Below are positions 8,581-54,629 of a stretch of 56,763 nt of DNA, one piece after another; positions within the stretch are counted from its first letter, which is position 1; each line of letters opens with the position of its first letter. The notes under the pieces were generated by a model, which saw only the letters and a program-made list of their open reading frames with translations, was not told the origin of the DNA and ran no database searches. A program made the position numbers and the translations under genes. The DNA is from an uncultured Candidatus Saccharibacteria bacterium (GTDB lineage: Bacteria > Patescibacteriota > Doudnabacteria > UBA920 > VMFF01). The DNA lies in the NCBI GenBank assembly GCA_964364285.1, contig CAYIKZ010000004.1, forward strand, positions 1-56,763, read 5' to 3'.

Positions 8581-8864
8581 TATTTCTTCTCTGTATCCTT
8601 TCCTACAATCCTAGCTGCTTCTTTCAGCTTGTCTATGAATGCTTTAAATCTAGAGTACATCCAAAAACTAGTTAATATGATTGCCAGGGCAATTCCGATG
8701 TATATATAATAGCCGGTACCATACTTTGTATCCAGCCATTTACCACCTAATCCAAAAAGAACTATGGGTAGTGCAATGATGAAACCAAGCTCAAAAGCAA
8801 CGCTCATAACTCTTGCGCTTTCATAGCTGTAATTCCTATTCGGTTTTTTATCGGTTTCTGCCAT
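8580..8864 (-). CDS. AtpZ/AtpI-like small membrane protein at the head of the atp operon
   Basis: Two TM segments and a position immediately upstream of atpB, with a 1-nt overlap. Start set at the ATG at 8864 (MAETDKK..). Confidence 0.6.
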   Translation of the reverse strand: MAETDKKPNRNYSYESARVMSVAFELGFIIALPIVLFGLGGKWLDTKYGTGYYIYIGIALAIILTSFWMYSRFKAFIDKLKEAARIVGKDTEKK

Positions 8865-8974
8865 ATGGTCTAAAATTGACGAAAATAGTTTAACAGAAAA
8901 ACACGGTTTCCGCAAGACTGCCATTTTTCAGAGAAGACCAAGGGCAAAAAAGCCAACAAACGAGCTTTTTTGTA

Positions 8975-9489
8975 TAAAAGCAAAGAGGAGTCAGGTGGTA
9001 CTGGCTCCTCTGTCTTGCTTGCGCTGTTCGGCACCCTAGCATCGCTCCGGATGCGTTATACCCTCGCGTGGGTGTCTAATCCAGGCAATTGGACCATCGG
9101 TCTAAGCCGACAATCAGACGGGCAGGGTAGCACACTTCTCGCCAGACCCTGTTTTAGAACCATAACAGCAGGCATAAGGCAGGCTGAAACGCGAGATCAC
9201 TCTCGTCGCTCATACTGCTCCTACCTTCTTCCCCTCCTTTTTCTTATGCAAACGAAAACCACAAGGAAGTTCGCCCCTCTAGTAAAAACCGACGAACAAT
9301 GGAGCCACAGAGGCTCACCAACCCTCACCGGGTCTTTACGCCACCGCCCGAACTCACGGACGGGAGTGGACACCATGGTGATTCGACTAGGTGGATGTTC
9401 GTCTACATCCCCTAACCGGGTGAGGTCATTGCCTAGAGGCCCTCCTACGAGAACCTACAGACCGCGCGGCGCGTATCGCACCTAGCGGT
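8975..9489 (-). ncRNA. candidate large (~515 nt) structured RNA of unassigned class
   Basis: G+C-rich: 58% and 65% in the two 60-nt windows I counted. No minus-strand ORF of 60 aa or more. An extended -10 TGCTATCAT lies at 9496-9504. There are many helices, several with G-U pairs or a GNRA loop only in the minus sense. The segment ends in a terminal hairpin AGAGGAG/CUCCUCU plus U tract (8971-9011). The ends are approximate. Confidence 0.5.
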
Positions 9490-9519
9490 GAAAATATGAT
9501 AGCACAAATGGATATATAT

Positions 9520-9543
9520 AAACAAAAACCGTCTTCACGGTTT
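9520..9543 (-). terminator. intrinsic terminator after tRNA-Thr
   Basis: On the minus strand: AAACCG-TGAAGA-CGGTTT followed by TTTGTTT, beginning 8 nt after the tRNA 3' end. Confidence 0.7.
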
Positions 9544-9550
9544 CTATTAC

Positions 9551-9626
9551 TGGAGCCGGCTGTCGGACTTGAACCGACCACCTGCGGTTTACGATACCGC
9601 TGCTCTACCAGATGAGCTAAGCCGGC
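9551..9626 (-). tRNA. tRNA-Thr (CGT)
   Basis: Reverse complement: GCCGGCT-TA-GCTC-ATCTGGTA-GAGC-A-GCGGT-ATCGTAA-ACCGC-AGGTG-GTCGG-TTCAAGT-CCGAC-AGCCGGC-T-CCA. Confidence 0.95.
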
Positions 9627-10020
9627 AATACTGCTCGGGCGCGCATTGTTTAACTAACCAATGCGAGCCCGTCTTGCTACCACCCGAAGGAACTCAGACG
9701 CTTGGGCGAAGGATCAACTGGACGGAACCGCCGCTGGTACACCCTCTCAGCGCGAACATGGTTCACATCCAGGCCTTTTGCCTCCTTCCCAGGCTTTGGC
9801 ACATGGGCCGCGCATTTCACTCGCCACATGAAATTGGAGAAGAACAGAACTCCACCGACCCAAACCATGCCCTCTCCAGGATGCATGCGCTGCGCTGCCT
9901 TCAGGATGGACTTACGCCGCGCAATGTGCTTCTTGTCGATGTTCCGCTCGGGCTTCTTCGTGTAATACACTGCTATCCCCTTGTCCGTGTGGTCAACCTG
10001 AATCCTGCGATTGATGATGG
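9627..10020 (-). other. G+C-rich ~390-nt segment transcribed toward tRNA-Thr; holds a GTG-initiated 97-codon basic ORF (9677-9970) of foreign composition. Gene, pseudogene or RNA is unresolved.
   Basis: 60% G+C in the 9721-9780 sample. An AAGGGG Shine-Dalgarno sits 6 nt before the GTG at 9970. Third codon positions are G/C-rich in that frame. A 12-bp hairpin with one mismatch (9636-9671) abuts the tRNA 5' end. I recognised no family. Confidence 0.35.
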
Positions 10021-10130: not shown

Positions 10131-11294
10131 CTATTTTTTAAGATCACCTTGTCTTATCTCGCTTGCTTTATTGTTTAATCTTTCCCATAGATGATACATC
10201 ACAGCATTTTGAGGTTCTTGATAGGCGTCGTGCCATTGGGCATATTTCCCAACCATTCGCTTTTCCAGACCGTCATATCTTTTTATATTTGCAAATTTCT
10301 CTATACGCCCTCGCATTCTGCTGGGTAACACTGCCCACAAATTAATGTTCTTGTCAGGAAATTTGCCCTTGAGTTCACCTTCTTTTTTGGTAGCCTCAAC
10401 CGCTAACATTATATACGCTTCTTCTATAGAATCAGCTTCTTGTCGCAAACCATCTATTTCTATTTGGGCTGTCTGCATATCATCTAAAGACTTTTCAGCT
10501 TGCAAAGCTATTTCCCTGTTTTTAACTACTATGTAATCAATTGCGGCTTTTTCTTTACCAGCAAATAATCCCAACCTTTTTCTTTGCGCAGCTAAACGTT
10601 CAAGAAATCCTGGTTCCTCAAAAGTATTTAAAACACTCATCGTATCACCTGGTTTTAGTGCTCTGTTAGCTTCTGCAACAATTCCTCCTAAAGCACTCCT
10701 GGTACGCTGTAACATTTGCTCCGCTTTTTCTTTTCTTTCATTAAGGTTTACTTTCTTGCTTACATAGTCCGTCATTCTATAGAAAACATCGTCAGCTTTT
10801 TTTTCTTGATCTGCTTCTAATCTCTTCATTTCTCCTGTCAAATCTCTTTCCTCGTGCTCAGCATAAGCGTCTTTTAAAACTTCGTCTTTCACATCTGGAA
10901 CGCTCATTATAGCGTCATATTTCTGTGATGACTCTTCTCTCTGTTGTGTCAGAGCATATATTAACTCTCTTAAGGACGTGAGATCTGCTTTATCTTTGGG
11001 GTCTGTTAATAAACCTTGTTGTTCTTGGGCTTCAAAAAAAGTCAAAGTTTTTTTAGCCTCTTCAAGCATTGATACCAAACGCTTATCTTCAGCAACCATT
11101 GCTTCACGATCGCCAAGTTGTTTTTTGATGGTTGATGTTTTTTGACGTTTAATTTCTTCAAAACGAGCCTCTAAATCAGCTCTTTGTTTTTTAAGGTCTT
11201 CTAGTGATAAGACTGGCGTTTCCGGTCTTTGTTCTTGTCCTTCTACAGGACCTTCGGCTCCCAGTGTACCCTCCCCTGGTGGTAACTTAGTCAT
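10131..11294 (-). CDS. hypothetical coiled-coil-rich protein (387 aa)
   Basis: Long ORF rich in E/K/Q/L heptad-like sequence. No motif recognised. It has its own promoter. Confidence 0.6.
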   Translation of the reverse strand: MTKLPPGEGTLGAEGPVEGQEQRPETPVLSLEDLKKQRADLEARFEEIKRQKTSTIKKQLGDREAMVAEDKRLVSMLEEAKKTLTFFEAQEQQGLLTDPKDKADLTSLRELIYALTQQREESSQKYDAIMSVPDVKDEVLKDAYAEHEERDLTGEMKRLEADQEKKADDVFYRMTDYVSKKVNLNERKEKAEQMLQRTRSALGGIVAEANRALKPGDTMSVLNTFEEPGFLERLAAQRKRLGLFAGKEKAAIDYIVVKNREIALQAEKSLDDMQTAQIEIDGLRQEADSIEEAYIMLAVEATKKEGELKGKFPDKNINLWAVLPSRMRGRIEKFANIKRYDGLEKRMVGKYAQWHDAYQEPQNAVMYHLWERLNNKASEIRQGDLKK

Positions 11295-12399: not shown

Positions 12400-12473
12400 T
12401 GGAGCGGGTAACGGGAATCGAACCCGTATCTCAGCCTTGGGAAGGCCGCATTCTACCACTGAACCATACCCGC
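12400..12473 (-). tRNA. tRNA-Gly (CCC)
   Basis: Reverse complement: GCGGGTA-TG-GTTC-AGTGGTA-GAAT-G-CGGCC-TTCCCAA-GGCTG-..-ACGGG-TTCGATT-CCCGT-TACCCGC-T-CCA. Confidence 0.95.
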
Positions 12474-29172: not shown

Positions 29173-29247
29173 TGGGGTGTCGCCAAGTGGTAAGGCAGCG
29201 GCCTTTGAAGCCGCCATTCGTAGGTTCGAATCCTACCACCCCAGCCA
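29173..29247 (+). tRNA. tRNA-Gln (TTG)
   Basis: TGGGGTG-TC-GCCA-AGTGGTAA-GGCA-GCGGC-CTTTGAA-GCCGC-..-TAGGTTCGAATCCTA-CACCCCA-G-CCA. It closely resembles E. coli tRNA-Gln. Confidence 0.95.
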
Positions 29248-54420: not shown

Positions 54421-54600
54421 GAGGTTTTTCCTTTATGACTTATATCTGAATAGACCGACCGGTATTCCTGTTAAAAAATAAATCTCGGTTATTAAACCGA
54501 GTGAAAATTAGCACTTAAGATGATCTTGAAATGCTTTTCCTCGGTAGGCTTACTGCTCTCACAGATTATGCCCTAAAAGGGCGCCGACTTTCTTTGGAAT
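54421..54600 (-). promoter_or_regulatory. rplJ 5' leader with terminator-like attenuator hairpin (putative L10 leader)
   Basis: On the minus strand, a G+C-richer structured part (GCCCU-UUU-AGGGC etc.) is followed by CUCGGUU-uaaua-AACCGAG plus AUUUAUUUUUU, about 60 nt before the rplJ ATG. Confidence 0.45.
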
Positions 54601-54629
54601 ATTCTATTCACCAACAATATACCAGAAAC

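Follow-up and report, generated by a model that had tools for sequence, protein, structure and literature searches.

Bacterial RNAs longer than 400 nucleotides (nt) with conserved, intricate folds are rare, and those of known function are ribozymes or the cores of major ribonucleoproteins (RNPs). The orphans among these large RNAs (OLE, ROOL, GOLLD and raiA) have repaid study. In the Candidate Phyla Radiation (CPR), the RF00010 threshold had to be lowered to ~5 bits before RNase P RNA was recognized in 10 of 35 complete genomes, and the RNAs recognized in this way have extended or missing helices (Lui et al. 2021, PMC8172020). Here, we analyzed a 56,763-nt stretch of DNA from an uncultured CPR bacterium of the Doudnabacteria (contig CAYIKZ010000004.1; "the window" is this whole stretch) and describe a candidate RNA gene on its minus strand, between tRNA-Thr(CGU) and the ATP synthase (atp) operon. 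The gene very probably stands alone and encodes a stable, trans-acting, highly structured RNA of ~515 nt whose class has not yet been described. Judging from its sequence signals, it is a self-contained transcription unit with a conserved, intricate fold and no relation to any described RNA family. A sequence-only reading of the window had offered two explanations, a large structured non-coding RNA on the minus strand or a leader of the atp operon, and its first option is borne out by the promoter and terminator, by covariation over 20 helices and by the lack of both an Rfam family and a coding signal.

A predicted transcription unit conserved in one subclade

Along the minus strand, the gene order is a promoter, an open reading frame (ORF) for a small protein that we call B (9970-9677), tRNA-Thr(CGU) (9626-9551), the terminator hairpin of that tRNA (9543-9526), the motif TGCTATCAT, the RNA with its terminator (9010-8975), the atp promoter (8915-8887), atpZ (ATG at 8864) and atpB. 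The signals that delimit the RNA are the following.

8975-9489, minus strand: whole RNA unit, ~515 nt, 55.3% G+C
9496-9504, minus strand: extended -10 promoter TGCTATCAT (TG-n-TATCAT), 3' of the tRNA-Thr terminator hairpin
8975-9010, minus strand: intrinsic terminator, GAGGAG-CCAG...CUG-A-CUCCUC followed by UUUGCUUUUAU (hairpin 9011-8984)
9551-9626, minus strand: tRNA-Thr(CGU), found by ARAGORN and Rfam, with its own terminator hairpin at 9543-9526
8887-8915, minus strand: atp promoter, -35 TTGCGG, 17-nt spacer, -10 TAAACT, upstream of the atpZ ATG at 8864

The unit differs in composition from the window (37.1% G+C) and from the atp flank (35.5%). It had first stood out as ~515 G+C-rich nucleotides unlike their flanks, and recomputing the two 60-nt samples taken then gave 58.3% (9001-9060) and 65.0% (9301-9360). 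The promoter and terminator, which had likewise been picked out by eye as an extended -10 after the tRNA-Thr terminator and a closing hairpin with a U tract, lie at the same positions in all homologues. The extended -10 is invariant or near-invariant in them as TGTGCTA..AT, and its spacing predicts a start near 9489, the first base of ACCGC. The terminator, whose U tract is interrupted, is conserved and carries a compensated change in one homologue (CAG/CUG to CGG/CCG in L002; homologous loci are numbered with the prefix L).

Fetching the atp neighborhood from 185,579 species genomes yielded 18 loci, of which only the closest four, with AtpB 86-97% identical, contain the segment according to nhmmer. 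Scanning Joint Genome Institute (JGI) metagenomes for the pattern AAAGGAGG-N(121-151)-GGATTAGACACCC returned two true homologues (L019 and L020) and three chance matches in coding genes (L021-L023); this pattern under-samples the family because one copy found later, L034b, has a differing loop. AtpZ look-ups added L034, L035 and L049-L051, and a look-up of P0002, a homologue of protein B, added L054. In total, nhmmer recognized full-length homologues in L001-L004, L019, L020, L034 (two copies), L035, L049-L051 and L054. They form five sequence lineages that are 53-67% identical to one another. The closest public relatives by AtpB are metagenome-assembled genomes labelled Patescibacteria or Doudnabacteria, and identical contigs occur in Hainich groundwater assemblies, from wells H41 and H52.

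The RNA always sits between tRNA-Thr(CGU), which it closely follows, and atpZ, on the strand of the atp operon, and the tRNA is present in every homologous locus that reaches that far. No second copy was found in the window. L034 carries two tandem copies that are 57% identical; both keep the fold, each has its own promoter and terminator, and the promoter of the second comes directly after the terminator of the first. In Doudnabacteria whose AtpZ is less than ~70% identical, the atp promoter either follows the tRNA directly or is separated from it by unrelated GC-rich cargo. Distant AtpZ relatives (52-68% identity), considered as a source of divergent copies of the RNA, held other cargo instead. 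That small genomes keep, and in one case duplicate, a 0.5-kb RNA gene over substantial divergence implies that it is under selection.

Comparative analysis supports an intricate fold

Folding of single sequences gave a modest gain over shuffled controls on both strands (z = -2.7 for the minus and -3.3 for the plus strand), and the structural case thus rests on comparison. RNAalifold with seven sequences predicted 79 pairs, 25 of them compensated, and an all-against-all column scan revealed additional helices. A 20-helix model was drawn on the window sequence, and nine distinct sequences, aligned by MAFFT without guidance, served to test it. On this alignment 86.2% of the 950 cells of the model, which was drawn on one of the aligned members, hold standard pairs, compared with 41-50% when partners were slid by one to three columns. 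Both sides had changed in 44 of 119 pairs, compared with 20.7 ± 2.8 in column shuffles (none of 500 reached 44) and 7-15 in the slid controls, and the covariation score was 0.256 versus 0.156. MAFFT misaligns several hairpins of the L004 group, an effect that runs against the model. Within the model we counted 98 G-U cells and 47 A-C cells; this excess, together with the direction of the promoter and terminator, indicates that the minus strand is the sense strand, as the sequence-only reading had argued from fewer pairs. The parts of the model are as follows.

9461-9489, minus strand: P1, 5' hairpin ACCGC/GCGGU with inner helix GUGCG/CGCGC; ACCGC invariant, three of five inner pairs changed on both sides
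9276-9439, minus strand: 5' domain, closed by P2 (CCUCUAG 9439-9433 / CUAGAGG 9282-9276)
9432-9427/9301-9296, minus strand: P3; 9425-9419/9329-9323: P4; 9414-9388: P5 hairpin; 9316-9302: P7 hairpin
~9387-9330, minus strand: variable insert of the 5' domain
9399-9404, minus strand: P5 loop AGACGA, conserved; its GACGA is the candidate partner of UCGUC 9295-9291 in pseudoknot PK1
9176-9275, minus strand: central domain with P8'/P8, P9, P10 and PKx
9269-9233, minus strand: P8'/P8 bulged hairpin, CUUCCU 9269-9264, bulge UGUGG, UUUUC 9258-9254, GAAAA 9243-9239, AGGAGG 9238-9233
9227-9220/9183-9176, minus strand: P9; 9205-9192: P10 hairpin with GUGA loop
9275-9272/9191-9188, minus strand: candidate pseudoknot PKx, GGCG/CGUU, two of four pairs changed on both sides
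9023-9169, minus strand: 3' domain, closed by long-range P15 (GCUGUU 9169-9164 / AACAGC 9028-9023)
9151-9123, minus strand: P11 hairpin; 9115-9092: P12; 9086-9066: P13; 9054-9039: P14
9072-9080, minus strand: nine-base P13 loop AUUAGACAC; GGAUUAGACACCC invariant in four of five lineages

Changes on both sides affect five of six pairs in P3, five of seven in P4, seven of ten in P5, three of five in P10 and five of nine in P12. P4, for instance, reads CCUCACC/GGUGAGG in the window, (A)CCCAUC(GG)/(CC)GAUGGG(U) in L001 and AUCUACC/GGUAGAU in L003, and P5 occurs in five differing sequences. The long-range P15 pairs GCUGUU with AACAGC in the window, GCUGUG with CACAGC in L003 and L004, and GCUGUU with AGCAGC in L034b, and P14 changes from GCAUC/GAUGC in the window to GCACC/GGUGC in L002. 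Some hairpins are reduced or lost: P1 is shortened to ACCGC-hexaloop-GCGG in L003 and L034b, P11 is missing in L002 and P14 is missing in the L004 group. The closing stem of P13 covaries (UGG/CCA, CGUGG/CCACG, GUUGG/CCAGC, CCGG/CCGG, GCGGG/CCCGC) around its conserved loop, which is GGUUUGAUCA in the fifth lineage, L034b.

Other elements are held nearly constant. The purine run AAAAGGAGG is invariant in all nine sequences, and only the pyrimidine strand of P8' that faces it varies (C to U and back); the bases after the run differ (GGGAA, AGAA, AUAA). The strands of PK1 are near-invariant, and their sole changes (GAUGA in L034a, UCGUU in L002) stay paired through G-U, so that 100% of cells are paired; the pairing is a candidate because double compensation is absent. 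Conserved unpaired or constrained elements are AGACGA in the P5 loop, UCGUC, GGAAG just 5' of P2, the bulge UGUGG, the purine run, AUGCCUGCUG, UAAAACAGGG and the P13 loop.

Seven of the ten helices paired by eye in the sequence-only reading match comparatively supported ones: 9393-9410 is P5, 9302-9316 is P7, 9263-9269/9233-9239 is P8' (whose 5' strand starts at 9269), 9192-9205 is P10 with its GUGA loop, 9123-9128/9146-9151 is P11, 9039-9054 is P14, and the last is the terminator. Its helix at 9344-9363 falls in the lineage-variable insert, and two others (9479-9485/9387-9393 and 9291-9297/9269-9275) found no support, their bases belonging to P1, PK1 and PKx. A long-range pairing of CCUCUAGG with CCUGGA, which RNAalifold proposed and we at first favored, was dropped because CCUGG fits better as the 5' strand of the covarying local hairpin P13 and CCUCUAG pairs with CUAGAGG. 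We also discarded a CsrA-type sponge, GGA motifs being about as frequent in a hand count as composition predicts.

Two alleles of the RNA coexist in Hainich groundwater, the window type and the L001 type (the window compared with L001, L049, L050 and L051). Their 5' domains (9276-9439) are ~55% identical, whereas P1 and everything 3' of the P8 loop are ~100% identical, and the differences in the 5' domain are compensated in helices. This domain-limited divergence points to recombination of a domain-sized cassette.

The RNA matches no described family

Rfam 15 comprises 4,227 models and includes ROOL, GOLLD, OLE, raiA, HEARO, RNase P, tmRNA, signal recognition particle (SRP) RNA, 6S RNA, group I and II introns and riboswitches. 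At the gathering score, the whole window and the 18 loci returned only tRNAs and, elsewhere, an L10 leader. At E ≤ 10, the 3.9-kb neighborhood returned no family for the RNA, and at E ≤ 1, seven further loci returned only tRNAs. Restricting the search to the element itself (window 8940-9530, L003 3145-3640, L034 1470-2470), with lax filters, left only chance matches; they scored 13-19 bits against unrelated families, eukaryotic or short, and several fell on the terminator hairpin. The RNA thus keeps the unassigned class that the sequence-only reading had given it. The absence of RNase P, tmRNA and SRP signature motifs, noted by eye in the segment, was confirmed in all nine sequences: ARAGORN found no tmRNA, the GGNUCGANUCC T arm and the 5' GGGG are absent from all homologues, and the SRP motif is absent from the nine sequences.

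Neighboring features and protein B

The -35 box of the atp promoter (8915-8910) lies ~60 nt downstream of the end of the RNA terminator at 8975. This promoter, GGCAGTCTTGCGG-N-TAAACT in the window and GGCAGTCTTGC-N17-TA(A/T)ACT or close variants (TAATCT, TAGAAT) elsewhere, is kept in all loci, including L005, L009, L014 and L038, which lack the RNA; by its sequence it is a good sigma-70-type promoter. A gene caller starts atpZ at 8864. A longer atpZ ORF of 114 amino acids (aa) is also open, and its first 20 codons (8864-8924, minus strand) overlap the atp promoter. The real start is probably ATG 8864, which gives a protein of 94 aa.

Upstream of the tRNA lies a small gene that belongs to the same G+C-rich block.

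9677-9970, minus strand: orphan 97-aa basic protein B, own promoter at 10050-10022, upstream of tRNA-Thr

Codon-like substitutions and an in-frame 9-nt indel identify ORF B, at the level of sequence, as a real gene. Its G+C content at third codon positions (GC3) is 0.69, compared with 0.30 for atpB and ~0.30 for the genes of this genome, which suggests a foreign origin. Seven distinct loci with the RNA include enough upstream sequence to show B, and six of them have it; B is found in no locus that lacks the RNA. An exhaustive HMMER search placed B in an uncharacterized family of ~100-aa proteins (48 clusters) with the motif RKRLRK..PG..W.GGILYF..VPG..VPKPG and, in most members, an aromatic residue (mostly Trp) at or near the C-terminus. 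Searches of B against Pfam, NCBIfam, PADLOC, PHROGs and PDB sequences returned no informative match. Its low-confidence AlphaFold model has a basic helix, a beta hairpin and a tail that is both basic and disordered. Between the B stop codon and tRNA-Thr lies a conserved G+C-rich hairpin (9630-9665, minus strand; GGGCUCGCAUUGG...CAAUGCGCGCCC, no U tract) that may help to process or stabilize a transcript shared by B and the tRNA.

The interval between tRNA-Gly, tRNA-Thr and the atp operon is variable and holds, depending on the genome, an LD-carboxypeptidase, a family-less 387-aa protein, a PGA_cap protein or a PhdYeFM antitoxin gene. The 387-aa protein (10131-11294, minus strand) is rich in Glu and Lys and matched nothing in Pfam, NCBIfam, PADLOC or PHROGs; the L001-type strain (L044) lacks it and has B directly after the LD-carboxypeptidase gene. 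In L043 (850-1668) and upstream of atpZ in L039, L041 and L042, the cargo differs between genomes and includes the PhdYeFM antitoxin gene, a DUF2127 protein and small, GC-rich genes for membrane proteins that are encoded on the opposite strand. A second kind of conserved GC-rich unit, without an Rfam match, occupies the tRNA-Thr/atp gap in the more distant L038 (1500-1900) and L040 (~2080-2400); this unit combines a TGCTATACT promoter with a Shine-Dalgarno site, an ORF of 33-42 aa rich in Arg and Lys, ~250 nt of structured tail and a terminator. A possible target-site duplication, the 9-nt GAAACCGTG found after the tRNA and inside the atp promoter, was rejected when L002 proved to lack it. Elsewhere in the window we noted a ribosomal protein L10 leader (54468-54615, minus strand; Rfam 52.5 bits, threshold 44) and further tRNA genes at 1-55, 107-182, 12400-12473 and 29173-29247.

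Alternative explanations

The plus strand could instead carry a protein-coding gene or a pseudogene: a stop-free frame of 172 codons (ORF 8970-9485, 171 aa) covers the segment entirely, and public gene callers record a 171-aa predicted protein on 11 contigs. We give this practically no credence. The ORF listing agrees with the earlier statement that no minus-strand ORF reaches 60 aa (all inside the segment are ≤54 aa) and that the plus-strand ORF is the sole long one, but this ORF opposes all neighboring genes, has no ribosome-binding site and has no Pfam match. Its translation, searched against 5.8 billion proteins with the aim of retrieving spurious ORFs on homologous RNAs, returned only itself. 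The frame is open over 172 codons in the window allele only; other homologues have 61-109 stop-free codons and frame-breaking indels, and substitutions are compensatory in helices rather than codon-periodic. The public 171-aa record is thus almost certainly a spurious antisense call on an RNA gene. A small ORF after the Shine-Dalgarno-like AAGGAGG was also set aside, its start codon and frame varying between lineages while the nucleotides stay conserved. Under the second option of the sequence-only reading, the atp operon would have a long structured 5' leader, or attenuator, and transcripts begun at the RNA promoter would continue into atpZ except when the terminator forms. The RNA does lie directly upstream of the operon, on the same strand, in every carrier genome, and it ends in a terminator with an interrupted U tract. 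However, a conserved promoter stands between that terminator and atpZ, and relatives that lack the RNA have it in front of the operon too, after tRNA-Thr or other cargo; in other Doudnabacteria the gap is filled by unrelated cargo; and the tandem copies of L034, each with its own promoter and terminator, are self-contained units. No anti-terminator pairing was noticed in the minimum-free-energy or consensus folds, in which no dedicated search for one was made. The independent atp promoter and the L034 tandem units therefore disfavor a leader, which we regard as very unlikely.

Annotation would also miss a universal RNA, RNase P RNA in particular, that had diverged strongly; we judge this explanation extremely improbable. 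In RNase P RNA, the universally conserved CR-I and CR-V form P4, which encloses nearly the whole molecule. In a regular-expression search, CR-I (GNAANNUC; GNAANNUCNGNG) was absent from the nine sequences even with a loosened pattern, as was the full CR-V (ACNNRANNNGNNUA), whose lone loose match, ACUAGAGGGG, is the paired 3' strand of P2. The resemblance that can be found, GGAAAGCCUC before P2 (as in L003), which faintly recalls the CR-I sequence GGAAAGUCC, does not extend to topology: P2, the helix after GGAAG, encloses a 5' domain of 165 nt, with ~300 nt and two more domains after it, unlike P4. Diverged RNase P RNAs of CPR bacteria can score below standard Rfam thresholds (PMC8172020), but no RNase P appeared among matches down to ~13 bits in searches of 500-1000 nt. 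Moreover, absence from most homologous sites in Doudnabacteria, duplication in L034 and mosaic alleles are unlike an essential single-copy RNA. A different kind of alternative leaves the nature of the RNA unchanged and concerns its role. In the manner of ROOL or GOLLD, the RNA would belong to an accessory element of mobile or phage origin that arrived by horizontal transfer at a hot spot linked to a tRNA, and it would serve in conflicts with phages or other cells instead of in housekeeping; this is compatible with a new structured RNA. The patchy distribution in one subclade, the variable interval with differing GC-rich cargo that includes a PhdYeFM antitoxin gene, the GC3 of the adjoining gene B (0.69 versus ~0.30), the tandem duplication in L034 and the recombinant alleles in one aquifer all speak for such a role. 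We nevertheless consider it unlikely: we saw no integrase, transposase or phage gene and no flanking repeat, B and its 387-aa neighbor have no PADLOC or PHROG match, and no homologue of the RNA was found in IMG/VR or in phage or plasmid collections (three pattern scans of viral contigs and BLAST against phage and plasmid collections gave tRNA matches or chance matches only).

Discussion

In our preferred reading, a stand-alone gene encodes a structured RNA that represents a new class. Transcription of the minus strand would begin at its own extended -10, at or near 9489, and the intrinsic terminator would end it ~60 nt upstream of the separate atp promoter. The transcript would fold into a 5' hairpin and three multi-helix domains, of which the 5' domain would be locked by a loop-to-junction pseudoknot, the central domain would be built around the purine-rich AAAAGGAGG strand, and the 3' domain, closed by a long-range helix, would display the conserved 9-nt loop. 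The RNA would be part of a G+C-rich accessory block (protein B, tRNA-Thr and the RNA) within a variable, tRNA-flanked region of one Doudnabacteria subclade. We infer that it is stable, acts in trans and serves an accessory rather than a core function. Our leading guess, a tentative one, is a small RNP in which the RNA would be the scaffold or active subunit and the co-inherited basic protein B its partner.

Several points weigh against this reading or limit it. The gene is known from sequence and the transcript ends from motifs only, and the family is so far known from a single subclade (AtpZ ≥78% identical). The 86.2% of paired cells is flattered because the model was drawn on one member of the alignment, an effect that leaves the compensated-pair counts untouched, and for P8' and the two pseudoknots the support is conservation together with changes on one side. 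For the RNP, the co-occurrence of B with the RNA is confounded by shared descent, and L034 has the RNA without B upstream. The only pointer from B to RNA binding is its basic composition, and its AlphaFold model has a predicted local distance difference test (pLDDT) score of 59, too poor for a fold search.

A more specific version of the preferred reading, in which a ribozyme or RNP-core RNA travels with B as a two-gene module and acts on the translation apparatus, seems to us quite unlikely. In this version, the RNA would display a mimic of the 16S rRNA 790 loop and an 8-nt strand complementary to the anti-Shine-Dalgarno sequence, AAAGGAGG; the AGACGA loop would pair with UCGU in the anticodon loop of tRNA-Thr(CGU), in competition with the internal UCGUC; and the rapidly exchanged 5' domain would be the specificity module. 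We treat the underlying matches as leads. The P13 loop with its two closing G-C pairs is one base off what we take to be the 790 loop of 16S rRNA helix 24 (GGAUUAGAUACCC), i.e., GG-AUUAGACAC-CC compared with a presumably universally conserved GG-AUUAGAUAC-CC, and AAAGGAGG (8 nt) is presumably complementary to the anti-Shine-Dalgarno end of 16S rRNA. The P13 stem covaries. However, the remainder of the RNA has no match to the small-subunit rRNA model and the loop differs in L034b, and the resemblance may be chance.

In practical terms, public gene calls place a hypothetical protein of 171 aa at this locus, on the wrong strand. The RNA would add a well-supported new class from the CPR (Patescibacteria), whose non-coding RNA repertoire is almost unexplored; interest is limited by its occurrence in one subclade so far and by functional clues too weak to test a long-standing question.

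Comparison with known systems places the RNA among the large ornate RNAs without assigning it to any of them. Like the diverged RNase P RNAs of CPR bacteria (PMC8172020), it is a GC-rich structured RNA of an AT-rich CPR genome that escapes default Rfam annotation; unlike them, it has no CR-I, CR-V or P4 topology, is patchily distributed, was duplicated once and has recombinant alleles. OLE, an RNA of ~600 nt that forms an RNP with adjacent small proteins (OapA, OapB and OapC), offers a parallel to the co-inherited basic protein found here, but OLE is confined to extremophilic and anaerobic Firmicutes, its model does not match, and the link to a protein is here one of genomic association only. 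The closest likeness drawn by the sequence-only reading was to ROOL and GOLLD. As a matter of membership it fails, the Rfam models having no match, and the RNA differs further in its CPR host and in lacking both a prophage context and a homologue in viral collections. As an analogy in size, ornateness and tRNA neighborhood it holds: in both cases RNAs of 0.5-0.8 kb with many helices and conserved loops and junctions form independent transcription units beside tRNA genes, are patchily distributed and sometimes occur in more than one copy. With more than 400 nt, covarying helices, conserved loops and junctions, and its own predicted promoter and terminator, the RNA fits the description of a large ornate non-coding RNA, and by every test applied it is a new family in a class of size and complexity that has few members.

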